From NCBI RefSeq assembly GCF_054482525.1, contig NZ_CM137006.1: a stretch of DNA of 64,000 nt; one strand, given 5' to 3'. Below, one piece after another: positions 2,208-57,861 of this stretch. Position 1 is the first letter of the stretch; the number at the start of each line of letters is the position of its first letter. The notes beneath the pieces are model-generated. The model saw nothing but the letters and a program-made list of their open reading frames with translations, did no database searches and was not told where the DNA came from. The position numbers were made by a program, and so were the translations under genes.

Positions 2208-3326
2208 ATGCATAACCAGGCTCCAATTCAACGTAGAAAATCAACACGTATTTACGTTGGGAATGTGCCGATTGGCGATGGTGCTCCCATCGCCGTACAG
2301 TCCATGACCAATACGCGCACGACAGACGTCGAAGCAACGGTCAATCAAATCAAGGCGTTGGAACGTGTTGGCGCTGATATCGTCCGTGTCTCCGTACCGA
2401 CGATGGACGCGGCAGAAGCGTTCAAACTCATCAAACAGCAGGTTAACGTGCCGCTGGTGGCTGACATCCATTTCGACTATCGCATTGCGCTGAAAGTAGC
2501 GGAATACGGCGTCGATTGTCTGCGTATTAACCCTGGCAATATCGGTAATGAAGAGCGTATTCGCATGGTGGTTGACTGTGCGCGCGATAAAAACATTCCG
2601 ATCCGTATTGGCGTTAACGCCGGATCGCTGGAAAAAGATCTGCAAGAAAAGTATGGCGAACCGACGCCGCAGGCATTGCTGGAATCCGCCATGCGCCATG
2701 TTGATCATCTTGATCGCCTGAACTTCGATCAGTTCAAAGTCAGCGTGAAAGCGTCAGACGTCTTCCTCGCTGTTGAGTCTTATCGTTTGCTGGCAAAACA
2801 GATCGATCAGCCGCTGCATCTGGGGATCACCGAAGCGGGTGGCGCGCGCAGCGGGGCGGTTAAATCCGCCATTGGTTTAGGTCTGCTGCTGTCTGAAGGC
2901 ATCGGCGACACGCTGCGCGTATCGCTGGCGGCCGATCCGGTTGAAGAGATCAAAGTCGGTTTCGATATTTTGAAATCGCTGCGTATCCGTTCGCGAGGGA
3001 TCAACTTCATCGCCTGCCCGACCTGTTCGCGTCAGGAATTTGATGTTATCGGTACGGTTAACGCGCTGGAGCAACGCCTGGAAGATATCATCACTCCGAT
3101 GGACGTTTCGATTATCGGCTGCGTGGTGAATGGCCCAGGTGAGGCGCTGGTTTCTACACTCGGCGTCACCGGCGGCAACAAGAAAAGCGGCCTCTATGAA
3201 GATGGCGTGCGCAAAGACCGTCTGGACAACAACGATATGATCGACCAGCTGGAAGCACGCATTCGTGCGAAAGCCAGTCAGCTGGACGAAGCGCGTCGAA
3301 TTGACGTTCAGCAGGTTGAAAAATAA
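2208..3326 (+). CDS. ispG: HMBPP synthase IspG (GcpE)
   Basis: 372 aa. The translation [36 protein letters not shown] and the C-terminal CPTCSR...GCVVNGPGE Fe-S motifs fit IspG. Confidence 0.96.
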
Positions 3327-3436
3327 TAACGTGATGGGAAGCGCCTCGCTTCCCGTGTATGATTGAACCCGCATGGCTCCCGAAACATTGAGGGAAGCGT
3401 TGAGGGTTCATTTTTATATTCAGAAAGAGAATAAAC

Positions 3437-18209: not shown

Positions 18210-18226
18210 GTTACCGTTGAGGTAAT
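18210..18226. promoter_or_regulatory. Dyad site O2 (GTTACC-GTTGA-GGTAAT)
   Basis: Perfect TTACC-N5-GGTAA just upstream of the first leftward gene. Confidence 0.6.
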
Positions 18227-18271
18227 GATTATGCGTATTTGGTTTGGTGTCAATAGATATGAGTTAAAAAA

Positions 18272-18288
18272 ATTACCCACAAGGTAAT
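18272..18288. promoter_or_regulatory. Dyad site O3 (ATTACC-CACAA-GGTAAT)
   Basis: Perfect dyad. A TTGACA hexamer on the minus strand lies between O3 and O2. Confidence 0.6.
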
Positions 18289-18297
18289 CTTGCTGGC

Positions 18298-18324
18298 AAT
18301 AAAAAAGCCGCCATGAGGCGGCTT
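18298..18324 (-). terminator. Terminator of the repressor gene
   Basis: On the minus strand, AAGCCGCC-tcat-GGCGGCTT is followed by TTTTTTATT. Confidence 0.8.
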
Positions 18325-18344
18325 ACTTGCTGAAAACTATAGTT

Positions 18345-18929
18345 TTATTGTTTGCTTTTTTCGTTCTGGTTGATGACAAATTCAATGTAACTTTCGATCT
18401 TTGCTTTCTCGGTTTCGGGTAACAATGCGTAGCGCGAGCGGTCATAGTTGATAGTCGCAGGGTCGTGCGGGTGAATCAGTAATTCATAGCCGTGACGCCC
18501 GAATGCGGATGCAACATTCTCCAGGGTGGAAATGGAAACGCTGACCTCATTGTTTAACAGGCGGCTGATTGTCACCTGGGCGACGCCGGATGCGCGGTGA
18601 AGTTTTCCCTGTGTTGAAAGGTCGCGGCTTTCGCTCATCCAGCGTTCCAGGTTGTGAGCCGCCAGCTGACCAATGTCGCTTGGGCCGACAGGCTGAAAAC
18701 CTTCCTGAGAAAGCGAGCGATCGATATCAAGCCAGTTACGGGGTTTATTGGCGGCAGCTTCAATTTTTCGCGCAACCTGGTCGCCGATAACCTTCTTACC
18801 AAGAGCCCAGCGGTTTACCAGATTTGCCTGAGTTCCAAGTTTTTCTGCCATCCGCGTCTGAACACCATTGAATTCACGGTCGATCAAGTCGTTGAGATTT
18901 TGCCTGCGGACGTCCTGGATACTTTTCAT
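18345..18929 (-). CDS. Prophage repressor with two XRE-type HTH domains and no S24 peptidase domain
   Basis: 194 aa. HTH 1 reads VQTRMAEKLGTQANLVNRWALGKK and HTH 2 reads LHRASGVAQVTISRLLNNEVSVSISTLENVASAF. It is divergent from a cro-like gene, and no Ala-Gly or Ser...Lys autocleavage module is seen. Confidence 0.7.
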   Translation of the reverse strand: MKSIQDVRRQNLNDLIDREFNGVQTRMAEKLGTQANLVNRWALGKKVIGDQVARKIEAAANKPRNWLDIDRSLSQEGFQPVGPSDIGQLAAHNLERWMSESRDLSTQGKLHRASGVAQVTISRLLNNEVSVSISTLENVASAFGRHGYELLIHPHDPATINYDRSRYALLPETEKAKIESYIEFVINQNEKSKQ

Positions 18930-18983
18930 TTTCTGGAAAATCGCCTCATATATGAATCAGTAGATGATTCAATTTAAAGCAAT

Positions 18984-19000
18984 ATTACCCAACAGGTAAA
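18984..19000. promoter_or_regulatory. Dyad site O4 (ATTACC-CAACA-GGTAAA)
   Basis: Perfect dyad in the repressor/cro divergent gap. Confidence 0.6.
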
Positions 19001-19031
19001 TGCACCCCATAGGTAACTATCCTTGATTTTT

Positions 19032-19048
19032 GTTACCTTATGGGTGAA
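19032..19048. promoter_or_regulatory. Dyad site O5 (GTTACC-TTATG-GGTGAA), one mismatch
   Basis: It lies in the spacer of a readable rightward promoter, TTGTTA-17-TATTAT. A lone GGTAAC half-site sits at 19011-19017. Confidence 0.45.
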
Positions 19049-19083
19049 TATTTATTATCTGAAATAAATATCAGGCAATAGCT

Positions 19084-19314
19084 ATGAGCGATAACGGACA
19101 TTTCGATTTCAAAAAGCACTGGCTTGCACTTACTCCGGATGAGCGTGAAGCCTTCGCACAGGAAGCCGGAACGACGAGTCACTATATACAGACTCACTTA
19201 ACAGGTAAGCGCAAAATGCCAGGTAAGGTATTGATGAATGGGCTTTTTAAAGCCTGTAAAACAAGACAATGGCTGCGCTCAAAAGCAGAACTGGCATACT
19301 TCTTCTACTCATGA
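19084..19314 (+). CDS. Cro/YdaS-like HTH protein
   Basis: 76 aa with an HTH (EAFAQEAGTTSHYIQTHLTGKR). It is the first rightward gene opposite the repressor. Confidence 0.55.
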   Translation: MSDNGHFDFKKHWLALTPDEREAFAQEAGTTSHYIQTHLTGKRKMPGKVLMNGLFKACKTRQWLRSKAELAYFFYS

Positions 19315-19335
19315 TATCCAGCCACAACCCTCTGT

Positions 19336-19359
19336 AGACCGCCACCCGGCGGTCTTTTC
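19336..19359 (+). terminator. Intrinsic terminator after the cro-like gene (tR1-like)
   Basis: AGACCGCC-accc-GGCGGTCT is followed by TTTTCA. Confidence 0.75.
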
Positions 19360-19368
19360 ATATCTATT

Positions 19369-19385
19369 CGTACCTCAAAGGTAAT
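19369..19385. promoter_or_regulatory. Dyad site O6 (CGTACC-TCAAA-GGTAAT), one mismatch
   Basis: It lies immediately after the terminator and upstream of the replication operon. Confidence 0.5.
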
Positions 19386-21269: not shown

Positions 21270-21286
21270 GATTACCTGTTGGGTAA
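21270..21286. promoter_or_regulatory. Dyad site O7 (ATTACC-TGTTG-GGTAAT)
   Basis: Perfect dyad. TTACCT (21271-21276), 17 nt, then TCTAAT (21294-21299) reads as a promoter. Confidence 0.6.
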
Positions 21287-21331
21287 TAAAATGTTCTAAT
21301 CTCTATTGATTTCATGTCTTATGTGGTTTTT

Positions 21332-21348
21332 AATTACCTAAGGGGTAA
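21332..21348. promoter_or_regulatory. Dyad site O8 (ATTACC-TAAGG-GGTAAA)
   Basis: Perfect dyad overlapping the RBS of the gene starting at 21352. Confidence 0.55.
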
Positions 21349-28794: not shown

Positions 28795-28871
28795 TGGCGC
28801 GGCATGCAGGATTCGAACCTGCGACCAACCGCTTAGAAGGCGGTTGCTCTGTCCAACTGAGCTAATGCCAC
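28795..28871 (-). tRNA. tRNA-Arg (anticodon UCU), 77 nt with encoded CCA
   Basis: Hand-folded cloverleaf: acceptor GTGGCAT/ATGCCGC, D arm GCTC-AGTTGGACA-GAGC, anticodon arm ACCGC-CTTCTAA-GCGGT, T arm GCAGG-TTCGAAT-CCTGC, discriminator G, then CCA. Confidence 0.85.
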
Positions 28872-45472: not shown

Positions 45473-45769
45473 ATGCAAGCTATAGGATTCATTGTTTATA
45501 TCGTCGTTGGTCTTTTTCAGTTGGCAGCAATTATGGCTGGGCTTGAATCATGGTGGGGATTGCACTGGATAATTGCAGCCCCCATTGCTTTCATCGTGAG
45601 CTATATTCCATTTGTTGGAGCGATTGTTGGTATGGTTGGCGCTGTGGATGTATGGCGGTGGGAGTGGTGGCAGGCTGGCCTTCTCTTCTTTGGTGGGATC
45701 ATCTTTGCTATTGTCTGCGGTGGAATGTCATCATTTTTCGAATGGCTATCATTCAGAAAAGGGACGTGA
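45473..45769 (+). CDS. 98-aa polytopic membrane protein (hypothetical)
   Basis: It has three to four hydrophobic segments and is Trp-rich (VDVWRWEWWQAG). Confidence 0.55.
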   Translation: MQAIGFIVYIVVGLFQLAAIMAGLESWWGLHWIIAAPIAFIVSYIPFVGAIVGMVGAVDVWRWEWWQAGLLFFGGIIFAIVCGGMSSFFEWLSFRKGT

Positions 45770-45777
45770 CATGTCAC
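45766..45777. repeat. Palindrome GTGACATGTCAC, copy 3
   Basis: It overlaps the stop codon of the 98-aa gene and directly abuts a terminator. Confidence 0.7.
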
Positions 45778-45802
45778 AGGCCGCTTTCGCGGCCTTGTTT
45801 TT
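45778..45802. terminator. Terminator at the end of the structural operon, shared with the convergent small gene
   Basis: AGGCCGC-tttc-GCGGCCT is followed by TGTTTTT. Confidence 0.75.
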
Positions 45803-45962
45803 AACGAATGCCACCGCCGCCCGGACGGGAATCCGCAGAACGCCCACCGCAGCGGGAGCCGTCAGCGGCAGTATCGCTGTCGTGCTGACAACGACCGGCA
45901 AAGGCCTGAGTTGAAGCTACCAGAGACAACAAAACGAACAGTGCAGCAAATGCTTTTTTCAT
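45801..45962 (-). CDS. Secreted 53-aa pre-peptide (signal peptide plus 31-aa Gly/Arg/Asp-rich, two-Cys mature part)
   Basis: MKKAFAALFVLLSLVASTQAFA | GRCQHDSDTAADGSRCGGRSADSRPGGGGIR. The longer GTG start at 46034 would begin inside the upstream terminator. Confidence 0.45.
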   Translation of the reverse strand: MKKAFAALFVLLSLVASTQAFAGRCQHDSDTAADGSRCGGRSADSRPGGGGIR

Positions 45963-46034
45963 TGTGAAATTTCCATCTATAAGCCACCTCAATGTGGCGT
46001 CAATGAGTGTAGCACTGACTTTTGTTTCGTCCAC

Positions 46035-46055
46035 AAAAAATCCCGCAGCGCGGGC
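46035..46055 (-). terminator. Terminator after the YafO-like gene
   Basis: On the minus strand, CCCGC-gct-GCGGG is followed by ATTTTTTG. Confidence 0.5.
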
Positions 46056-46601
46056 TTATTCCTTCCATTTATCAGAAAAAAGATCTTCTTCTAAAGGCAT
46101 TGGTTCTGTTTTTGTTTTCTCAAAGAATTGATAACTGATAGTGATTGCTGCCTCTTTAAACTCTTCTTGCTCAGTTATGTTGTGGGCATCTGCGTCAACA
46201 AAAAACATAACCAGCGCATCACGATTGTGATTTACCGAATAAACTAAAAAGCAATTACTTGTTGGTATGCATTTTACTTGCACAGACGCTATTTTTTTCC
46301 ATGCATCCCAAGATGATTTTTTACCAGTGTGTTTTTTATCACTATCTTCTGGAATATAGTCTTGGTTATCGACATGAGTATGCCTGACATTTAGTTTAAG
46401 CATTTCTGTCGGACGAGCAAATGCAGCATCTTTACCAAGAGATGGATGGTATCCCGTTTTCCAATACTGGGTAAAGGCATCAGATACTTTCTTCAGCTCA
46501 AGATCAGATGCACAAAGGGCCGAGAAATTTTGCGTATGCAATACTCGACCCTTATATCTGACAATTTGATTTTTATCATTCTGCGACGCAGACGAACTCA
46601 T
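46056..46601 (-). CDS. YafO-like toxin domain protein (putative ribosome-dependent mRNA interferase)
   Basis: It starts at MSSSASQ after AAGGAAAATT. The pattern F.QYWKTGYHPSLGKDAAF....LKLNVRHTHV...TSNCFLVYSVNHNRDALVMFFVDADAHN parallels the E. coli YafO pattern F.SYKRDGVLPDIFGRDALY...VAHIHL...DEAHLVYCQG...AWLLIAILKPEPH. Confidence 0.45.
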   Translation of the reverse strand: MSSSASQNDKNQIVRYKGRVLHTQNFSALCASDLELKKVSDAFTQYWKTGYHPSLGKDAAFARPTEMLKLNVRHTHVDNQDYIPEDSDKKHTGKKSSWDAWKKIASVQVKCIPTSNCFLVYSVNHNRDALVMFFVDADAHNITEQEEFKEAAITISYQFFEKTKTEPMPLEEDLFSDKWKE

Positions 46602-46755
46602 AATTTTCCTTATTGTTACGAGAATCAAAGAAAGCGCGGGATACGCGACTTGCGTGATCTTTTGTCATAGTAACTTTTACGCACTCTACGCTTCCATTGA
46701 AAGAACGTCTTGCGGCAGCTTGCGCTCTACGCATCTGCAATTTTTCGTTTCGCAT
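46576..46755 (-). CDS. 59-aa basic protein upstream of and overlapping the YafO-like gene (candidate antitoxin/regulator)
   Basis: MRNEKLQMRRAQAAARRSFNGSVECVKVTMTKDHASRVSRAFFDSRNNKENYEFVCVAE. A GAGGT SD lies 6 nt upstream, and it overlaps the downstream start by 26 nt. Confidence 0.3.
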   Translation of the reverse strand: MRNEKLQMRRAQAAARRSFNGSVECVKVTMTKDHASRVSRAFFDSRNNKENYEFVCVAE

Positions 46756-46781
46756 GACATTACCTCATATCTCATAAGTTC

Positions 46782-46810
46782 ATTACACGGATTAATAAAA
46801 ATGAAACCAA
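46782..46810 (-). promoter_or_regulatory. Candidate sigma70 promoter of the YafO-like operon (TTGGTT-17-TGTAAT)
   Basis: Read on the minus strand. The dyad O11 lies 4 nt upstream of the -35. Confidence 0.4.
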
Positions 46811-46814
46811 TCCG

Positions 46815-46831
46815 TTTACCCTTGAGGTAAT
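46815..46831. promoter_or_regulatory. Dyad site O11 (TTTACC-CTTGA-GGTAAT)
   Basis: Perfect TTACC-N5-GGTAA. Confidence 0.55.
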
Positions 46832-46867
46832 AGTACGCTATTCACCCACAGTCTGCAATCTGTACAG

Positions 46868-46894
46868 AATTATTTAAAGGCACATCCCTGTGCC
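46868..46894 (-). terminator. Hairpin after the Bro-N gene
   Basis: On the minus strand, GGCACA-ggga-TGTGCC is followed by TTTAAATAATT. Confidence 0.45.
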
Positions 46895-46902
46895 GCCGCC
46901 CG

Positions 46903-47598
46903 TCAGAAGAACCCTGCCTTGTCGTTGATGTACTCCGCGTGCGTCTGGATATCACGCAGGCATTTGCTCACACCGACGATGTAGCAGAACATGGTGGTCA
47001 GCTCCGCCGCCGCGCCCGATACGTCGTGCCCGTCGTCCTGTAACTGGTTCAGCAGATTCATCAGCAGTGAGTTCTCCGTCAGGCCGAGAACACCAGACGG
47101 CGAATGAATCAGGCTGCGGTAGCCGGGCTTCAGTGGGGCACTGTAGGTTTTGTTCTCTATCTTCATCGCCTGCATCACTGCTGATGCTGTGGCGTTGGCT
47201 ACCTGGTCGGCAACCATCTTTATGCGCTCTTCCTGCGGGAGCGAGTTTTTAATGTAACTTCCGGTGCGGCGGATCTGAGGAAGAACCTCACCTGTAACCC
47301 ATTTACGAAAGCGGTATGGGATAGTGCCTGGTGTCACTGCGTCGCGGCAGCGGAGGATCAGTGTGTAGAGGCCTGACTCGGAGATGATGATCGATTCTTG
47401 CTCACCGCCAGGGGTGTCGGTTGAAGCGACGCCCTTCTCATCATCATCAAGTTTTCGAACAGCATCTCGATGGTTTGCTATGCCTATAGCCCGACAAACA
47501 TCTGAAGCGATAAACCATGGCTCACCATTAATGACGATTACTCGTATATCGGCTTGGGATTCGAAAGAAAAAATGGACGTGCTTTTTGTAGCTGTCAT
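46903..47598 (-). CDS. Bro-N domain antirepressor-like protein
   Basis: 231 aa. The N-terminus FESQADIRVIVINGEPWFIASDVCRAIGIANHRDAVRKLDDDEKGV is a typical Bro-N domain. The C-terminal 70 aa are paralogous to the ORF at 47914-48186. Confidence 0.7.
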   Translation of the reverse strand: MTATKSTSIFSFESQADIRVIVINGEPWFIASDVCRAIGIANHRDAVRKLDDDEKGVASTDTPGGEQESIIISESGLYTLILRCRDAVTPGTIPYRFRKWVTGEVLPQIRRTGSYIKNSLPQEERIKMVADQVANATASAVMQAMKIENKTYSAPLKPGYRSLIHSPSGVLGLTENSLLMNLLNQLQDDGHDVSGAAAELTTMFCYIVGVSKCLRDIQTHAEYINDKAGFF

Positions 47599-47754
47599 AG
47601 TGGTTACCTTTTAGTCTGGTTAATCACCACTACCGACGCCAATCGGTTGGTGGTGAGCTGTGCAGGGTTGGCGTAACCGGCTAAAAGGACCCGGCGCACC
47701 TTTCGGTGCCCCCACACAGCCCACCATAATACGAATGTGGCCGTGCTATACGCA

Positions 47755-47776
47755 TAAAAAAACCGCTTGCGCGGTG
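47755..47776 (-). terminator. Intrinsic terminator inside the Ant leader
   Basis: On the minus strand, ACCGC-gcaa-GCGGT is followed by TTTTTTTT. Confidence 0.65.
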
Positions 47777-47875
47777 AATGCGCCTTTTAGTAATCCGGGA
47801 CGCCAATCCCGGCACTGGATTTTGCCAGTGCCCGATTACTATGGCACAAGAGGAGTGCGATGTAAATTTACCGCA
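47755..47875 (-). ncRNA. Predicted short leader transcript (about 120 nt) from the operator-overlapped promoter to the intrinsic terminator
   Basis: The promoter at 47882-47910 and the terminator at 47755-47776 are on the same strand. In between lie the hairpins GGCACTGG/CCAGTGCC (47811-47832) and CCGGGA-cgccaa-TCCCGG (47795-47812). Confidence 0.3.
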
Positions 47876-47883
47876 AAGGTAAA
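47867..47883. promoter_or_regulatory. Dyad site O12 (TTTACC-GCAAA-GGTAAA)
   Basis: Perfect dyad covering the predicted start site of the promoter at 47882-47910. Confidence 0.6.
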
Positions 47884-47910
47884 TATAAGCACTTCATTTG
47901 GTAATTGCAA
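47882..47910 (-). promoter_or_regulatory. Sigma70 promoter TTGCAA-17-TATATT (Ant leader promoter)
   Basis: On the minus strand, the -35 is TTGCAA (47905-47910), the spacer is 17 nt, and the -10 is TATATT (47882-47887). Confidence 0.55.
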
Positions 47911-47913
47911 ACC

Positions 47914-48186
47914 TTATCTGGTTTGTTTTCGTAATTGTTCGGCACAATAGTCGAGATGTGTTTGCAGATCCTGCATAGACATCTGTGAGCTGGTGACGTA
48001 GTTAATCAGTGCAGTCAGTTCGGCAAGTGGGCCATCGACATTAAATCCATCCTTATCTAGATCCCGGAGTAATTTCATCAAGTGCGATCCCTCCACCAGT
48101 GACTTGACGCCTCCCGGCGTGTGAATCCTTTCGGTAAATCCGTCTTCCAGTGGATAGTGATACTGCTGCATCTTAATCTTCTCCAT
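47914..48186 (-). CDS. Small LexA-controlled protein homologous to the Ant C-terminal domain (candidate SOS antirepressor)
   Basis: A 90-aa ORF. The likely real start is the ATG at 48171 (85 aa), 9 nt after GGAG. IHTPGGVKSLVEGSHLMKLLRDLDKDGFNVDGPLAELTALINYV...MQDLQTHLDY aligns with Ant IHSPSGVLGLTENSLLMNLLNQLQDDGHDVSGAAAELTTMFCYI...LRDIQTHAEY. Confidence 0.6.
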   Translation of the reverse strand: MEKIKMQQYHYPLEDGFTERIHTPGGVKSLVEGSHLMKLLRDLDKDGFNVDGPLAELTALINYVTSSQMSMQDLQTHLDYCAEQLRKQTR

Positions 48187-48193
48187 GCAATAA

Positions 48194-48209
48194 CTGTATA
48201 TTTATACAG
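48194..48209. promoter_or_regulatory. LexA (SOS) box CTGTATATTTATACAG
   Basis: Perfect CTGT-N8-ACAG with an all-A/T spacer inside TAACTGTATATTTATACAGTAT. On the minus strand it contains a TATAAA -10 candidate. Confidence 0.8.
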
Positions 48210-48247
48210 TATCAAATAATTTGTTTGCTATCCAGCACGTTTTGCAA

Positions 48248-48264
48248 ATTACCTAAAAGGTAAT
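48248..48264. promoter_or_regulatory. Dyad site O13 (ATTACC-TAAAA-GGTAAT)
   Basis: Perfect dyad overlapping the rightward promoter TTACCT (48249-48254), 17 nt, TATATT (48272-48277) for the tailspike gene. Confidence 0.6.
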
Positions 48265-48367
48265 ATCTATTTATATTCACAGTATTTCTATCCATATGTG
48301 GTTTTTCAGGTAATAGAATAACCAGATATGCGGCGCAACGGGTGCTGCGACTATCTGGAGATTTAAC

Positions 48368-51142
48368 ATGACGGTCTCAACCGAAGTTGACCACAACGAA
48401 TACACAGGTAACGGCGTTACGACATCATTTCCGTATACCTTCCGCATTTTCAAAAAAACAGACCTGGTTGTTCAGGTGTCTGACCTGAACGGTAACGTAA
48501 CAGAATTGGTTCTGGATACCGGTTATACGGTAACTGGGGCGGGCACTTATAGTGGCGGTTCTGTTGTTCTTCCGTCGCCGCTTGCTGCTGGCTGGAAAAT
48601 CACGATAGAGCGTGTGCTTGATGTGGTGCAGGAGACTGATCTTCGCAATCAGGGAAAATTTTTCCCCGAAGTTCATGAGGATGCATTTGACTACCTGACG
48701 ATGCTGATCCAGCGATGTTTTGGGTGGTTCAGACGTGCATTGATGAAACCATCTTTGCTTGCAAAATATTACGATGCAAAGCAAAACAGAATTTCTAACC
48801 TTGCAGATCCATCACTTGAGCAGGATGCTGTAAATAATCGCTCAATGCGTAATTATGTCGATGCTGCAATCGCCGGGGTTGTTGGTGGTTTTGGTTGGTT
48901 TATTCAGTATGGTTTTGGGGCAGTATATCGAACGTTCCAGGATAAGATGCGGGATATCGTCAATGTTCGCGATTTTGGTGCAAAAGGGGATGGCATTACT
49001 GACGATACAGACGCAATAACAAATGCCATCATTTACTGCGCATCTAACGGAAAACGCCTGAAGTGGGATTCTGGTGTGTATTTGATTAGCCGCATAAAAT
49101 GCGGCGGGGATAATTATAACTATGACTGGGTAGCTGATGGCAAGGTTGTCTTAAAGTCAACCGCAAAAGAGCCTCTTGGTCCAAACTGGATTGATGATTA
49201 TTTCATAAGACTCGAAGGTGGAGATGCCACGCCAATTGACTATAATTCAACAATAAATCCTGGTGACACATCAATATCAATTAACTCAGCATATTCTGTT
49301 GATGCAGGCGATATAATTATGATTCATGGTAATCGCTTAATTCAGACAGATAATAGAGGACAGGCTTGTGAAGGTGAAATGCATGTTGTTACTGCTTTTG
49401 ATAATGCAACAAAAAAAGCGGAGATATCAGGTGCATTTTATTTTTTCTACTCTGCGAGCAATGATTACTCAACGACCGTAACAGCATCTGTATCCGGAGG
49501 TGAATTCTCATTTGGTAATGATGCAACATTAACAAAACAATACAATCAGGTAAAAGTAACAGGTGTCACCGGAGCTAACGCCGGAATATCAAGATACATA
49601 ACTCATTGGGATTACGACACTAAAACAGCAAAATTTGAATATGCTCAGGGACCATTCCCGTTTAAACCATCTGTTGGAGACGTGTTTAAAATCACAAGAA
49701 AGGCAAATATATATAAAAGAAAACCATGCTACGGCAGAATTGTCGGTGATTTCAATTTTGAAAGACCTGTCACGCAGAACGCATCTCCTGGTGATTTGGG
49801 GTTCCGTGGTCTTGTGATAGATGGCGCTGTTGATATGCATATAGAAGGAATAAAACTAATCGGCTTTTCAGAAACTGGAATTTTTCTTGAGTCATGCTAC
49901 AGAACGAAAATAATAGAGCCATATATTGAATACTCAAACCGTGCATATGATTTAACAAACGGCACTGGTTATGGTGTTGAAATATACAATAGCAGCTATT
50001 GCACAGTCGTGGATATGATAGCATTTGCTTGCAGGAGGGGGCTTGATGTAAGCGGGACTCAAATGGTATCACTGTATAATAACATTATAAATCCAACGAT
50101 GATGGGTGGTGGAACTGCATATGATGGAGTTAAATTTTTCCCTGATGGCGATACAAGAAATTCATGTTGCGGTGGACACGGCCCATCATACGAAACAACT
50201 TTTACAGGCGGCAATTCAGTCAATTTGTATTATGCTGGTGTAATACGCGGATTAAATGAAGTGTATGATGGAATGAACGCCAGGGGATTTAGCGGACCGG
50301 CTCCTTTTTTTGTAAGATATAGTGGTGGTGGGTTCACGATTCAGAACTGTAATTATATTGATGGTTTTACTGAGATGTCTTTGCCATACAACTTGAGGTA
50401 CAAACCTGTGAATGCAACTCAACGTAATCACAGACCTTTTGTTTTTATTGAAACAACTCTGGCACAGACAGACAGAAACTCTTACTATAAAGAACTTCCT
50501 GTTGTTATTAAGAATAATACCGCAAGGACTGTTCTCAAGGGCTTTTTACGTTTTGAGGTTAATGATGGCCTCACCCCTCTAATCCAAAATATTTATTTTG
50601 GTGGTAATTTATGCATGGCGAACCCAGAAACATCAGACTCTGTATCAGGGCAAACAGAGGCAGTAATGGTTTATTCATCAGTTCCTGGTGCAATAATTGT
50701 TCGAAATTTCCATGATCTTGGCGGTAACAGAATTGTTCCTGTTGGAGCAGGATACAGATACTGCGGTATGTTCAACACGCCAGATGGAATAGCAGGAACA
50801 ATAGTTCAACCAGACGGAAAATATCTAATAACACTTGAAGCCAACAAATCTACAAGTATCCTTGTTGGTGGATATGTCCCATGTGTTCGCCTTGATATGC
50901 ACGACATACTTGATATTCATGGGGTAATTGCAGTTGGTGTTCTTATTCATCGTGGTGAGGCAATTGATTTTTCTCCTTTAAAAGAAATTAATAAGCAAAA
51001 TGTTGTATTGAAAACCGGAGTTCTTTCAGATAATGATGGTGATGAAAATAACTTAAATATTTCGTTTGACTTTGCAACCATATATTTAAGCAACAAGATG
51101 CCAAATAAGATTCAACTATCTATTGAAGTATCAGGAGTGTAA
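48368..51142 (+). CDS. Tailspike: conserved N-terminal particle-binding domain plus pectate-lyase-like beta-helix receptor-binding/depolymerase body
   Basis: 924 aa. The N-terminus MTVSTEVDHNEYTGNGVTTSFPYTFRIF...ETDLRNQGKFFPEVHEDAFDYLTMLIQ is one I recall from epsilon15/phiV10-type tailspikes. It is followed by VNVRDFGAKGDGITDDTDAITNAI. Confidence 0.8.
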   Translation: MTVSTEVDHNEYTGNGVTTSFPYTFRIFKKTDLVVQVSDLNGNVTELVLDTGYTVTGAGTYSGGSVVLPSPLAAGWKITIERVLDVVQETDLRNQGKFFPEVHEDAFDYLTMLIQRCFGWFRRALMKPSLLAKYYDAKQNRISNLADPSLEQDAVNNRSMRNYVDAAIAGVVGGFGWFIQYGFGAVYRTFQDKMRDIVNVRDFGAKGDGITDDTDAITNAIIYCASNGKRLKWDSGVYLISRIKCGGDNYNYDWVADGKVVLKSTAKEPLGPNWIDDYFIRLEGGDATPIDYNSTINPGDTSISINSAYSVDAGDIIMIHGNRLIQTDNRGQACEGEMHVVTAFDNATKKAEISGAFYFFYSASNDYSTTVTASVSGGEFSFGNDATLTKQYNQVKVTGVTGANAGISRYITHWDYDTKTAKFEYAQGPFPFKPSVGDVFKITRKANIYKRKPCYGRIVGDFNFERPVTQNASPGDLGFRGLVIDGAVDMHIEGIKLIGFSETGIFLESCYRTKIIEPYIEYSNRAYDLTNGTGYGVEIYNSSYCTVVDMIAFACRRGLDVSGTQMVSLYNNIINPTMMGGGTAYDGVKFFPDGDTRNSCCGGHGPSYETTFTGGNSVNLYYAGVIRGLNEVYDGMNARGFSGPAPFFVRYSGGGFTIQNCNYIDGFTEMSLPYNLRYKPVNATQRNHRPFVFIETTLAQTDRNSYYKELPVVIKNNTARTVLKGFLRFEVNDGLTPLIQNIYFGGNLCMANPETSDSVSGQTEAVMVYSSVPGAIIVRNFHDLGGNRIVPVGAGYRYCGMFNTPDGIAGTIVQPDGKYLITLEANKSTSILVGGYVPCVRLDMHDILDIHGVIAVGVLIHRGEAIDFSPLKEINKQNVVLKTGVLSDNDGDENNLNISFDFATIYLSNKMPNKIQLSIEVSGV

Positions 51143-55617: not shown

Positions 55618-57861
55618 ATGAAACTGAATGCAACTTATATAAAAATACGTGATAAATGGTGGGGGCTTCCGCTGTTCCTGCCTTCTTTAATCTTGCCCAT
55701 TTTCGCCCACATTAATACTTTCGCGCATATTTCTTCCGGTGAGGTTTTTCTCTTTTATCTGCCTCTGGCTCTGATGATCAGCATGATGATGTTTTTCAGC
55801 TGGGCGGCATTGCCAGGGATCGCCTTAGGGATTTTTGTCCGCAAATATGCAGAGCTGGGTTTTTACGAAACGCTCTCATTAACGGCTAATTTTATTATCA
55901 TTATCATTCTCTGTTGGGGCGGTTACAGGGTCTTTACTCCCCGGCGTAACAACGTTTCACATGGTGATACCCGTTTAATTTCCCAGCGTATATTCTGGCA
56001 GATTGTGTTTCCTGCAACGCTGTTTCTGATACTTTTCCAGTTTGCTGCGTTTGTAGGATTACTGGCGAGCAGAGAAAATCTGGTCGGCGTCATGCCTTTT
56101 AACCTCGGGACCTTAATCAATTATCAGGCCTTACTGGTGGGCAATCTGATTGGTGTCCCGCTGTGCTACTTCATCATTCGTGTAGTGCGAAATCCGTTTT
56201 ATTTACGTAGTTATTATTCGCAATTAAAACAGCAGGTTGATGTCAAAGCCACCAAAAAAGAGTTCGCACTCTGGCTACTGGCATTAGGTGCTTTACTGCT
56301 GCTGTTATGCATGCCGTTAAATGAAAAAAGCACAATTTTTAGCACCAACTATACCTTGTCATTATTGCTGCCCCTGATGATGTGGGGAGCGATGCGCTAT
56401 GGTTATAAGCTGATTTCGCTGCTCTGGGCGGTCGTGTTGATGATCAGCATCCACAGCTATCAAAATTACATTCCCATTTATCCTGGCTATACCACGCAGC
56501 TGACCATAACCTCCTCCAGTTATCTGGTATTCTCTTTTATTGTCAATTATATGGCTGTACTGGCAACCCGTCAGAGAGCGGTAGTCAGACGCATTCAGCG
56601 GCTTGCGTATGTGGACCCGGTAGTTCATCTGCCAAATGTTCGCGCCCTGAATCGCGCGTTGCGTGATGCCCCCTGGTCTGCGCTTTGTTATTTACGCATC
56701 CCTGGCATGGAAATGCTGGTTAAAAACTATGGCATCATGCTACGGATTCAGTACAAGCAAAAACTTTCTCACTGGCTGTCACCATTGCTGGAACCGGGTG
56801 AAGATGTTTATCAGCTATCGGGTAACGATCTCGCGCTGCGACTGAATACAGAATCGCACCAGGAGCGCATTACCGCACTGGATAGCCATCTCAAGCAATT
56901 TCGTTTCTTTTGGGATGGAATGCCGATGCAACCGCAGATTGGCGTCAGTTACTGCTATGTGCGCTCGCCAGTGAATCATATCTACTTACTGCTGGGAGAG
57001 CTAAATACGGTCGCCGAACTTTCCATCGTGACCAACGCCCCAGAAAATATGCAGCGTCGCGGGGCAATGTATTTGCAACGCGAATTGAAAGATAAAGTCG
57101 CGATGATGAATCGGCTACAGCAGGCGCTGGAACACAACCATTTTTTCCTGATGGCCCAGCCGATTACCGGTATGCGTGGCGATGTCTACCATGAAATTCT
57201 TCTGCGTATGAAAGGTGAGAATGATGAACTGATCAGCCCCGACAGCTTCTTGCCGGTCGCGCACGAATTTGGTTTATCGTCGAGTATCGACATGTGGGTC
57301 ATTGAACATACGCTGCAATTTATGGCTGAAAACAGAGCGAAGATGCCCGCTCACCGTTTTGCCATTAATCTGTCGCCAACCTCGGTATGTCAGGCTCGTT
57401 TTCCCGTTGAAGTCAGTCAGCTGCTGGCTAAATATCAGATTGAAGCGTGGCAACTTATTTTTGAAGTCACCGAAAGTAATGCTCTGACCAATGTTAAGCA
57501 GGCGCAAATCACCTTGCAGCATCTTCAGGAATTAGGCTGCCAGATTGCGATTGATGATTTCGGCACCGGCTACGCCAGCTATGCGCGGCTTAAAAATGTG
57601 AATGCCGATTTGCTTAAAATTGACGGCAGTTTTATCCGCAATATTGTGTCAAATAGTCTGGATTATCAGATAGTGGCGTCGATTTGCCACCTGGCGCGAA
57701 TGAAGAAAATGCGGGTAGTGGCAGAGTATGTTGAAAACGAAGAGATCCGCGAGGCGGTGCTCTCTTTGGGGATCGATTATATGCAGGGTTATCTTATTGG
57801 TAAGCCGCAACCGTTAATTGATACGCTGAATGAAATCGAACCCATTCGCGAAAGTGCCTGA
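55618..57861 (+). CDS. pdeF: Cyclic-di-GMP phosphodiesterase PdeF (YfgF): membrane sensor domain, degenerate GGDEF, EAL
   Basis: 747 aa with a multi-TM N-terminus and EAL-domain motifs EVTES and DDFGTGYAS. Confidence 0.9.
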   Translation: MKLNATYIKIRDKWWGLPLFLPSLILPIFAHINTFAHISSGEVFLFYLPLALMISMMMFFSWAALPGIALGIFVRKYAELGFYETLSLTANFIIIIILCWGGYRVFTPRRNNVSHGDTRLISQRIFWQIVFPATLFLILFQFAAFVGLLASRENLVGVMPFNLGTLINYQALLVGNLIGVPLCYFIIRVVRNPFYLRSYYSQLKQQVDVKATKKEFALWLLALGALLLLLCMPLNEKSTIFSTNYTLSLLLPLMMWGAMRYGYKLISLLWAVVLMISIHSYQNYIPIYPGYTTQLTITSSSYLVFSFIVNYMAVLATRQRAVVRRIQRLAYVDPVVHLPNVRALNRALRDAPWSALCYLRIPGMEMLVKNYGIMLRIQYKQKLSHWLSPLLEPGEDVYQLSGNDLALRLNTESHQERITALDSHLKQFRFFWDGMPMQPQIGVSYCYVRSPVNHIYLLLGELNTVAELSIVTNAPENMQRRGAMYLQRELKDKVAMMNRLQQALEHNHFFLMAQPITGMRGDVYHEILLRMKGENDELISPDSFLPVAHEFGLSSSIDMWVIEHTLQFMAENRAKMPAHRFAINLSPTSVCQARFPVEVSQLLAKYQIEAWQLIFEVTESNALTNVKQAQITLQHLQELGCQIAIDDFGTGYASYARLKNVNADLLKIDGSFIRNIVSNSLDYQIVASICHLARMKKMRVVAEYVENEEIREAVLSLGIDYMQGYLIGKPQPLIDTLNEIEPIRESA

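Follow-up and report, generated by a model that had tools for sequence, protein, structure and literature searches.

The immI region of phages P1 and P7 encodes, in order, the antisense RNA c4, icd and ant1/ant2 (Citron and Schuster 1990; Rfam RF01695, RF03163). c4 carries two pairing segments, a' and b', whose target sites lie upstream (a1 and b1) and downstream (a2 and b2) of it, and a hairpin with a U-run separates a1 and b1 from c4. Two promoters in tandem serve the region, of which the distal one has a repressor operator; b2 falls on a ribosome-binding site, and the final target is an anti-repressor. The action of c4 has been shown in P1/P7; that a1 and b1 compete for c4 is a model given in the Weinberg 2010 supplement, which cites Citron and Schuster 1990.

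A second described system is isrK-orf45/STnc1160-anrP of Gifsy-1 (Hershko-Shalev et al. 2016, PMC4825925; Rfam RF01394). Here, a terminator gives rise to a short RNA, IsrK, with partial read-through, and both a1:a' pairing and trans-activation by IsrK have been shown (PMC4825925). Hfq binding and short-RNA accumulation with partial read-through of isrK are documented in Gifsy-1 only (PMC4825925, PMC7067206), and the published Gifsy-1 mechanism does not invoke c4. In the APSE phages of Hamiltonella, isrK and c4 stand directly before a Bro-N gene, with no icd; the public record annotates both RNAs together with a' and b', and Rouil et al. 2020 (PMC7313666) handle isrK and c4 as two separate sRNAs. 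The literature that we searched likewise handles IsrK and c4 as separate systems.

Two further phage RNAs invite comparison. The CI RNA of satellite phage P4 resembles c4 in that it is processed from a leader, pairs with repeated flanking sites (seqA/seqC) and maintains immunity. Its effect is to end transcription prematurely, and it does not target the ribosome-binding site of an anti-repressor gene. The Gifsy-1 authors liken their own system to this RNA (PMC4825925). The sar RNA of P22 also limits anti-repressor synthesis, but it is an opposite-strand cis-antisense transcript that overlaps the ant start, whereas the regulator described below is encoded on the same strand as its target, upstream.

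Results

An IsrK-type RNA and a c4 RNA precede the anti-repressor gene of an E. coli prophage

We analyzed a window of 64,000 nucleotides (NCBI RefSeq assembly GCF_054482525.1, contig NZ_CM137006.1); coordinates follow plus-strand numbering, with the RNA itself given in minus-strand sense. The element that carries the leader is an E. coli prophage of the epsilon15/phiV10-like type (Uetakevirus) and, unlike the plasmid prophage P1, an integrated podovirus. RefSeq shows no feature under the leader of its anti-repressor gene, ant, in this locus and among the best matches listed. A first-pass annotation had proposed RNA-based control of ant, comparing the leader with P1/P7 c4 and P22 sar but not recognizing its sequences. 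All the sequence features it listed were present where it had placed them; however, a standard Rfam scan at gathering thresholds recognized both C4 and isrK.

A scan of 45500-49500 at E ≤ 1 gave three matches. C4 (RF01695; 47646-47731, minus strand) scored 79.2 bits against a threshold of 45, full-length over positions 1-87, and isrK (RF01394; 47831-47756, minus strand) scored 77.9 bits against a threshold of 50, full-length over positions 1-77, upstream of C4 and in tandem with it. The third, c4-a1b1 (RF03163), fell just short of its threshold (45.1 versus 46.7 bits) and covers the same bases as the isrK match. The likeness to P22 did not hold up: there was no sar among these matches, and nothing suggested an opposite-strand transcript. 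The P1/P7 comparison, in contrast, was borne out, since P1 searched in the same way returned three matches identical in kind and order, in agreement with its annotated a1, b1, c4, a2, b2 and icd, with C4 at 68.8 bits. Judging from the C4 scores in both, the kinship of the leader with P1 c4 is true homology, beyond resemblance. Our comparison set comprised 21 loci (this window, 19 phages and P1); in all 19 phage loci, isrK is followed ~25 nt on by C4. The leader is a typical P1/P7 c4 antisense-RNA immunity switch with an IsrK-type decoy RNA, a module of a known kind that is unannotated in this genome and looks functional by sequence.

The best-scoring relative of the upstream half is Gifsy-1, which shares the promoter position, a terminator (with read-through in Gifsy-1), a c4-family RNA 25 nt downstream (69 bits in Gifsy-1) and then an anti-repressor-like gene. 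The Gifsy-1 locus adjoins antQ in a lambdoid late region, whereas the module in the window sits between the tail-spike gene and injection/structural genes.

c4 and its target sites change together across 21 loci

The regulator, a 77-nt three-stem c4 RNA at 47725-47649, had been missed by the first-pass annotation. Its mature form is predicted from a GGU at 47725 and a CCACC ending at 47649, which together delimit exactly 77 nt, equal to P1 c4 (48343-48419); cleavage of P1 c4 by RNase P before GGU is stated in PMC5320573, citing Hartmann 1995. Folded alone, c4 adopted a three-stem minimum-free-energy structure (-47.6 kcal/mol, z = -5.0), in which stem P1 (17 bp) encloses stems P2 (GAAA loop) and P3, and a' and b' are unpaired. 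The same fold is also the minimum-free-energy structure inside the whole leader (-122.2 kcal/mol, z = -6.06 versus shuffles), and the homologous c4 of P1/P7 has the same three stems with a' and b' at equal places. Covariation, which the first-pass annotation had proposed to look for along with folding, was evident: in the 21 homologues, 14 of the 27 pairs have compensatory changes. From the equivalent region in Salmonella, a stable RNA, STnc1160, accumulates.

The b' segment (CCUUUUAG, 47681-47688, minus strand) lies in the loop of stem P3, and a' (ACGCCAA, 47668-47674, minus strand) lies in the unpaired junction 3' of P3. The latter is the 7-mer that had earlier been put forward as a possible partner of two shared loop sequences. 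Each segment, a' with 7 nt and b' with 8 nt, has one exact complement upstream and one downstream of c4, in the same order as in P1/P7, which fits antiparallel pairing. Upstream, a1 (UUGGCGU, 47800-47806, minus strand) occupies a hairpin loop, as in P1/P7 and in the c4-a1b1 family, where this is the loop of the second hairpin, and b1 (CUAAAAGG, 47783-47790, minus strand) is single-stranded. Downstream, a2 (UUGGCGU, 47636-47642, minus strand) lies in the loop of a small hairpin (CCGA/UCGG) that covaries, and b2 (CUAAAAGG, 47607-47614, minus strand) includes the ant Shine-Dalgarno sequence AAGG, 8 nt before the AUG. The first-pass annotation had missed the pairing of b' with b1 and b2, and with it that b2 covers the ribosome-binding site.

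The 10-mer GACGCCAATC (plus sense), earlier reported as repeated, has exactly two copies (47635 and 47799) on that strand across the 64-kb window. GATTGGCGTC has a third plus-strand copy, at 56937, which is probably due to chance; this copy falls within a 747-aa ORF, and no b site is close to it. Of the two hairpins described around the repeats, CCGGGA-UUGGCG-UCCCGG (47812-47795) forms in minimum-free-energy folds. The other (47656-47624) can be drawn, and its inner 3 bp covary across relatives, but the whole-leader minimum-free-energy fold lacks it, and it competes with c4 stem P1, whose 3' strand is taken up in its outer stem. This outer stem contains a conserved box, AGUGGUGA (47624-47631, minus strand), complementary to that same strand. 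The c4 model does not account for the conserved GGUGGUGA box or the alternative helices it can form. A pairing of this box with the ant translation start showed a weak trend (-8.7 versus -6.5 kcal/mol) but was rejected, since 45 of 210 control windows were equally good.

Across the 21 loci, we counted 9 types of a' and 18 distinct b' loops, which change together with their targets. The complement of a' is found at a constant position within the isrK hairpin loop (20/21 loci) and immediately 3' of c4 (21/21). True partners versus non-partners gave duplex energies of -8.9 versus -3.3 kcal/mol for a':a1, -8.95 versus -4.4 for a':a2, -11.0 versus -4.4 for b':b1 and -11.6 versus -5.8 for b':b2, and none of 10,000 label permutations reached the true-partner mean. 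This complementarity and co-variation identify the two shared loop sequences as the a1 and a2 targets of a'. They also bear on the idea that this is a decayed intergenic region whose repeats and hairpins arose by chance, or are left over, and regulate nothing. A blank RefSeq annotation would suit that idea, but two Rfam matches stand well over threshold, the whole-leader fold lies at a z of about -6, the ant ORF is intact, and the leader is kept in 834 of 5426 complete E. coli genomes and in 307 phage records. As far as sequence analysis goes, covariation already refutes chance or decay, and we give it practically no credence.

The position of b2 suggests a block of translation

The IsrK-type/c4-a1b1 short RNA (~77 nt, 47755-47831, minus strand), as delimited by Rfam and folding, showed all three of its hairpins when folded: hairpin 1 (47831-47812), hairpin 2 (47812-47795), with a1 in its loop, and the terminator. 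The isrK match ends at this intrinsic terminator (ACCGC-GCAA-GCGGU plus U7, 47775-47755, minus strand), which had been noted earlier and proved real, with a terminator at this position in 21/21 loci. As in P1/P7, it separates a1 and b1 from c4.

The terminator lies only 8 nt past b1 and is conserved in all loci, as might be expected if c4 acted mainly on transcription, whether by premature termination (compare P4 CI and seqA/seqC) or by pairing with a1/b1 in a way that boosts stopping at the IsrK terminator. Read-through would then be the regulated step, as the first-pass annotation had proposed. Biere, Citron and Schuster are said to have found in 1992 that ant transcription in P1 is lost after c4 action, which would agree with this. 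The possibility was also raised by the Gifsy-1 authors, in whose hands IsrK raised a transcriptional fusion 8-fold (PMC4825925). However, the translational effect in Gifsy-1 was 139-fold, and constitutive STnc1160 left the IsrK effect unreduced (PMC4825925). Folds of the leader and its parts contained no anti-terminator or riboswitch- or attenuator-like alternative to the terminator hairpin. Moreover, b2 lies on the Shine-Dalgarno sequence here, and at the other loci examined it closely precedes the start codon, as expected of a translational block. We consider a mainly transcriptional action very unlikely.

A family-conserved promoter lies downstream of a lineage-specific one

The promoter reported earlier, a sigma-70-like TTGCAA-17-TATATT motif (47910-47882, minus strand), was found, as was a dyad over its expected start site. 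Among the relatives sampled, only the Uetakevirus phages phiV10 and Tyrion have this distal promoter, which appears to be lineage-specific; its position is comparable to that of P51a/P2c4 in P1. The promoter conserved in the family, which the first-pass annotation had overlooked, is a proximal one immediately before the isrK part, TTTACA-17-(TG)CATAGT (47866-47838, minus strand), present at the same position in 21/21 loci. Its transcripts are predicted to start near 47831, judging from the homologous P51b/P1c4 of P1 and from the start mapped for Gifsy-1 IsrK.

The dyad, ATTTACC-TTTGC-GGTAAAT (47866-47884), is centered on the expected start site of the distal promoter, covers its -10 element and start and abuts the -35 element of the proximal promoter. 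Its core, TTACC-N5-GGTAA, has 10 exact and 7 one-mismatch copies in the window against 1.3 expected, and none of 100 shuffles reached 17. In phiV10, Tyrion and a Klebsiella phage, the arms are conserved and the spacer varies, and two copies adjoin an HTH_3 repressor-like gene. The dyad is likely the operator of the prophage repressor. The tandem arrangement of P1/P7 may recur here, in the form of two promoter-like sites and a dyad over the distal -10 and start, although the window has a symmetric dyad where P1 has an asymmetric 17-bp C1 site. Because the dyad abuts the proximal -35 element, c4 may not be constitutive in lysogens, unlike in P1.

ant follows c4 directly, and an ORF that starts inside c4 is not conserved

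The ant gene (46903-47598, minus strand) is an intact ORF of 231 aa encoding a Bro-N domain (E = 2e-21) and a C-terminal phrog_450 domain; PHROG anti-repressor families also match, and NCBIfam gave no match for Ant or for a 90-aa ORF. P1 has Ant1/Ant2 in place of this Bro-N protein. Ant is identical at 230 of 231 positions to ORF4 of vB_EcoP_ZX5, a tested anti-repressor whose overexpression gave ~1000-fold fewer lysogens (PMC9782041).

No icd-like ORF is present between c4 and ant, where the gap from c4 to the ant AUG is only 47 nt, and b2 lies directly on the ant ribosome-binding site, in contrast to P1/P7. The P1 route, in which blocked icd translation leads to Rho-dependent loss of ant transcription, is therefore inapplicable as such. 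Other small ORFs over the leader were without matches: the plus-strand ORF at 47660-47950, previously judged non-genic, has no Pfam match and overlies the RNA genes; a minus-strand 44-aa ORF (47681-47815) has no Pfam match; and NCBIfam was blank for a 24-aa ORF (47681-47755) and for the ORF labelled 'ash family protein' in ZX5.

An ORF of 35 codons opens with an AUG that lies within c4, and its stop precedes the ant AUG by 21 nt. It matters for the published Gifsy-1 IsrK model, in which the read-through transcript adopts an inactive fold that the short RNA opens in trans at the ribosome-binding site of an upstream ORF; that ORF overlaps the c4 region, and Ant would be made by translational coupling, with no separate processed antisense repressor. 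Homology of the window module with isrK-orf45-anrP, and the very presence of the 35-codon ORF, speak for such a mechanism here. In Gifsy-1 itself, short IsrK raised anrP translation >100-fold, and orf45 start-codon mutations or an inserted stop weakened the IsrK effect (PMC4825925). The start-codon mutations, however, do not distinguish the two models, since they also strike the 5' strand of c4 stem P1, near the RNase P site. At the 21 loci, the ORF from the c4 AUG ranges from 8 to 64 codons or runs in frame into the downstream gene, and indels in the loops alter the encoded peptide; we rejected it as coding because neither length nor frame is conserved. By contrast, compensatory changes attest to conservation of the RNA fold, C4 scores above threshold in Gifsy-1 as well, and accumulation of stable STnc1160 from this region in Salmonella also counts against the model. 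Finally, the ORF end overlaps the anrP start in Gifsy-1, whereas in the window it stops upstream of b2 and the Shine-Dalgarno sequence. We regard the Gifsy-1 model as an unlikely account of this locus.

Discussion

We are confident, short of certainty, that this leader belongs to the P1/P7 c4 family as a module of immI type, with c4 blocking Ant translation and the short, terminated RNA serving as its decoy. From sequence and homology, transcription would come mainly from the conserved proximal promoter, and the distal promoter, overlapped by the repressor dyad, could add to it. Many transcripts would end at the terminator to give a 77-nt IsrK-type RNA with a1 in a hairpin loop and b1 single-stranded, and read-through transcripts would include both c4 and the ant mRNA. 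RNase P would excise c4, as it does in P1, and the b' loop and a' junction of c4 would pair with b2 and a2 in the ant 5' UTR. Because b2 includes the Shine-Dalgarno sequence, ribosomes would be excluded and Ant would not be made, and the prophage repressor would thus stay active. Superinfecting phages with the same a/b code should also be held in check. On the short RNA, a1 and b1 would compete for c4, and if abundant it would titrate c4 and allow Ant to be translated. For this decoy role, the published Gifsy-1 model has instead a structural switch with upstream-ORF translation.

The pairing code of the window differs from those of P1, the APSE phages and, in its b site, Gifsy-1. Its a and b sites are UUGGCGU and CUAAAAGG, those of P1 are UUGACAG and GUUAGUG, and different immunity specificity is therefore expected. 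The APSE codes (UUCGCAU and CUAAACAGG) differ too, as does the APSE phage lineage. Gifsy-1 has identical a sites (UUGGCGU/ACGCCAA) and an unlike b site, UCACCG; VT2-Sakai, too, combines this a site with another b site.

The Gifsy-1 compensatory pairs G28A/C162U and G31A/C159U, mapped via the Rfam C4 match, fall exactly on a1:a', which would equate the published 'helix b-I' with a1:a'. Gifsy-1 IsrK and P1 c4 might then be one three-RNA switch, comprising an a1/b1 decoy, a processed c4 and an a2/b2 target, with 'orf45' being c4; we see the chances of this as evenly balanced. If it is true, IsrK would activate the anti-repressor by titrating c4, and the window would be a member with the switch directly on ant, downstream of a LexA-controlled paralogue. 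An additional conformational step could come from the conserved GGUGGUGA box.

As a module, the switch is textbook material (P1 immI, 1990; Rfam since 2010). What the analysis supplies is the missing annotation, two RNA genes and four target sites, which would explain how the anti-repressor is silenced in a common E. coli prophage type, with a predicted immunity code of a = UUGGCGU and b = CUAAAAGG. The a site is common to Gifsy-1, Stx phages and the window, and cross-talk could result. The mapping of the Gifsy-1 IsrK experiments onto a1:a' of c4 would unify two literatures and lends support to the decoy hypothesis of 1990.

The ant leader carries a P1-type c4 system

We scanned positions 45500-49500 against Rfam and obtained three matches, every one on the minus strand: C4 antisense RNA at 47731-47646 (79.2 bits, threshold 45), isrK at 47831-47756 (77.9 bits, threshold 50) and c4-a1b1 at 47844-47792 (45.1 bits, below its threshold of 46.7). 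C4 and isrK were recovered again, at gathering thresholds, in a scan of the whole window. The leader sequences, described in the first-pass annotation as not recognized, therefore belong to named families. The likeness to P1/P7 c4 suggested there was borne out, in that the P1 immI region yielded C4, isrK and c4-a1b1 in identical order, and the matches coincided with the record's annotated Oc4, P2c4, P1c4, a1, b1, c4, a2, b2 and icd.

On the minus strand, and named as in P1, a1 (UUGGCGU, 47806-47800) lies in the loop of the second isrK hairpin, b1 (CUAAAAGG, 47790-47783) is single-stranded, and an intrinsic terminator (ACCGC-GCAA-GCGGU followed by U7, 47775-47755) ends the isrK part. Further downstream, b' (CCUUUUAG, 47688-47681) forms the loop of c4 stem P3, and a' (ACGCCAA, 47674-47668) occupies the unpaired junction 3' of P3. 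The second target set comprises a2 (UUGGCGU, 47642-47636), in the loop of a small hairpin, and b2 (CUAAAAGG, 47614-47607), which includes the Shine-Dalgarno AAGG, placed 8 nt 5' of the ant start codon (47598). The sequence features reported in the first pass were all present where it had placed them within 47913-47599 (minus strand), confirming the observation: a promoter-like element, a dyad over its expected start, the terminator, the 10-mer GAUUGGCGUC at 47808-47799 and 47644-47635 (with no further copy on that strand in 64 kb) and, between the two 10-mers, the exact 7-nt complement that is a'. Of the target logic, the a set had been found, but the b set, the c4 fold and the conserved promoter had been missed. 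A third target-sense 10-mer, GATTGGCGTC (56937-56946, plus strand), lies on the opposite strand within a 747-aa ORF (55618-57861), has no b site near it, and is probably a chance occurrence (about 0.1 expected).

In P1, icd lies between c4 and ant. The window lacks icd; unlike in P1, the end of c4 is 47 nt from the ant AUG, and b2 falls on the ant ribosome-binding site itself. The same direct c4-Bro-N gene layout has already been described in APSE phages (PMC7313666), with isrK, c4, a' and b' annotated in their records. Such systems have been known since 1990, and the C4 family has been in Rfam since 2010, then with 593 representatives (Weinberg 2010). Much of the c4 logic had been recovered from raw sequence; the novelty of the leader had been rated too high.

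Regulator and targets covary

The whole leader folded at -122.2 kcal/mol (z = -6.06), far below shuffled controls. Folded alone, 47725-47649 took up the family's three-stem shape (-47.6 kcal/mol, z = -5.0), leaving a' and b' unpaired. By analogy with P1 c4, which RNase P cleaves 5' of GGU and which has CCACC at its 3' end, this 77-nt stretch is the predicted mature c4.

In a distant blastn search, 307 phage records proved to contain the isrK-c4 stretch: Stx phages, Gifsy-1, APSE, and Yersinia, Klebsiella and Actinobacillus phages. For comparison, we used 19 fetched loci together with P1 and the window (21 loci). Each of the 19 fetched loci carried isrK followed ∼25 nt on by C4, both above threshold. 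The covariation that the first pass had named as a check was found: 14 of the 27 pairs in the c4 consensus fold showed compensatory changes. Across the 21 loci, there were nine distinct a' 7-mers and 18 distinct P3 loops; an exact a' complement occupied a fixed isrK hairpin-loop position in 20 loci and lay just 3' of c4 in all 21, and complements of each P3 loop were found at the b1 and b2 positions. We then computed duplex energies with windows set by position, not by complementarity. True partners paired more stably than non-partners for a':a1 (-8.9 vs -3.3 kcal/mol), a':a2 (-8.95 vs -4.4), b':b1 (-11.0 vs -4.4) and b':b2 (-11.6 vs -5.8), and none of 10,000 label permutations attained the true-partner mean. 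Regulator and targets thus covary, as the c4 model predicts. This analysis thereby establishes family membership, fold, complementarity and covariation.

The inner stem of the second hairpin displays a2

The first pass had also proposed a hairpin at 47656-47624. Its inner stem around a2 (CCGA/UCGG) was supported, with two pairs that each had both sides changed in eight sequences, so that a2, like a1, is displayed in a small loop. The full hairpin was absent from the minimum-free-energy structure of the whole leader. Its 5' arm, UCACCACC, is the 3' strand of c4 stem P1 and pairs with a conserved (A/G)GUGGUGA box 3' of a2 (47624-47631, minus strand; equivalent position in the 20 other loci); the c4 fold and this hairpin are therefore mutually exclusive. 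In a fold of the processed 5' UTR, the partner of the box is ACCACUA, at the start codon of ant; the preference for this region is weak (-8.7 vs -6.5 kcal/mol; 45 of 210 control windows did equally well).

Two predicted promoters and a putative repressor operator

A common promoter, TTGACx-17-TATAxT, was found at one position, 6-7 nt 5' of the first isrK hairpin, in 21/21 loci; the window copy is TTTACA-17-(TG)CATAGT (47866-47838, minus strand). By the numbering of Gifsy-1 IsrK, the transcript and the Rfam isrK match begin at the same base, so the homologous start is ∼47831 and the predicted short RNA is 77 nt, rather than the ∼120 nt first estimated. The distal promoter (TTGCAA-17-TATATT, 47910-47882, minus strand), from which the first pass had started, was common only to Uetakevirus phiV10 and Tyrion among the relatives sampled, at a position comparable to that of P1 P51a.

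The dyad ATTTACC-N5-GGTAAAT (47884-47866) overlies both the -10 element and the start site of the distal promoter, and adjoins the proximal -35. Its arms are kept among relatives, with a variable spacer. TTACC-N5-GGTAA occurs 17 times in the window (10 exact and seven with one mismatch) vs 1.3 expected, across 13189-57803 and notably at 18211-19384 and 21272-21348; two of these are in a divergent region, adjacent to the gene for a 194-aa HTH_3 protein (18345-18929, minus strand). Because of the conserved arms, the excess of copies and these two neighbors, the dyad is very likely an operator of the prophage repressor, and the HTH_3 protein and scattered dyads are likely that repressor and its operators. 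Its presumed target in the model below is the distal promoter.

A probable model for ant control

Transcription would start at the proximal promoter and, when repressor is absent, also at the distal one, and would either end at the terminator, yielding the short RNA that carries a1 and b1, or continue past it, yielding c4 and ant mRNA. Pairing of a' and b' with a2 and b2 would mask the ant ribosome-binding site, so that Ant would not be made and repression would be maintained. Carrying both target sites, the short RNA should compete for c4, as Citron and Schuster proposed in 1990 for a1/b1, according to the Weinberg 2010 supplement. For this prophage, we infer c4 processing, expression levels and the decoy effect.

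Prophage context

The window is an E. coli prophage of the epsilon15/phiV10 type (Uetakevirus). Over the 1.5 kb surrounding the leader, it shares 98% identity with Escherichia phages Phi05_2388 B and vB_EcoP_ZX5 and 95% with phiV10, in whose record this region bears no annotation beyond a terminator and an "anti-immunity" Bro-N protein. Ant (231 aa; 46903-47598, minus strand) has a Bro-N domain and PHROG anti-repressor family matches, and is identical to ZX5 ORF4 at 230 of 231 residues. Overexpression of ORF4 lowered lysogens from about 10^9 to 10^6 (PMC9782041); that paper does not mention the leader's RNAs.

Just 5' of the leader, a 90-aa ORF (47914-48186, minus strand) encodes a paralogue of the C-terminal domain of Ant that stands alone (42% identity across 78 aa, E = 1e-16; phrog_450 matches both). 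Its promoter region holds a near-consensus LexA box (TACTGTATAAATATACAGTT, 48194-48209) and a further repressor dyad (48249-48263). There is no minus-strand terminator between this ORF and the leader, so SOS-induced transcription may enter isrK-c4-ant. Located 3' of ant, a 190-aa ORF (46056-46628, minus strand) matches the Pfam YafO-toxin family weakly (23.2 bits, slightly short of the 25-bit cut-off) and also matches phrog_1651 (unknown function). The window also contains host sRNA sroE at its left end (3326-3417, plus strand) and a tRNA-Arg (anticodon tct; 28795-28871, minus strand).

Public annotation of the leader

The 315-nt leader matches 834 of 5426 complete E. coli genomes, and RefSeq E. 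coli chromosomes among the best hits listed have no feature under it. We considered whether the ORF from the c4-internal AUG, called "orf45" in Gifsy-1 and annotated in ZX5 as an "ash family protein," is protein-coding. It has 35 codons in the window and 8 to 64 across the 21 loci, or is fused to the downstream gene, which argues for RNA rather than protein. In ZX5, a 37-aa "ash family protein" CDS is called over c4 (1183-1296 of the fetched locus). In PhiR49_2, 2H10, phiP27 and ASU11, which have an 88-nt c4 variant, the upstream frame continues in phase into the downstream gene; their CDSs ("transcriptional regulator," "putative antirepressor," "hypothetical protein") begin before isrK and engulf both RNA genes, and these starts are probably mis-called. 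Public annotation of the leader is absent or wrong. What the leader lacks is annotation, and a routine Rfam scan detects both RNAs.

The Gifsy-1 IsrK system and c4

In Gifsy-1, short IsrK in trans raised anrP translation 139-fold (PMC4825925), and IsrK and the c4-region RNA STnc1160 both accumulate in Salmonella lysogens. The orf45/STnc1160 region (895-1135 of the reverse complement of NC_010392 33202-35210) belongs to the C4 RNA family (69 bits in Rfam, threshold 45). In Gifsy-1 numbering, the first orf45 AUG (A107) is the AUG within the conserved c4 5' strand UUAUGG, G28 and G31 fall within a1, and C159 and C162 fall within a'; the published compensatory pairs G28A/C162U and G31A/C159U coincide exactly with base pairs of a1:a'. 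These experiments fit the c4-decoy model. The connection between IsrK and c4 is made neither in PMC4825925 nor in a 2025 review, and the literature we found keeps the systems separate. P1 c4 and what is described in Gifsy-1 as a "dual-function IsrK" system appear to be one switch, a by-product of our analysis that may merit specialist attention.
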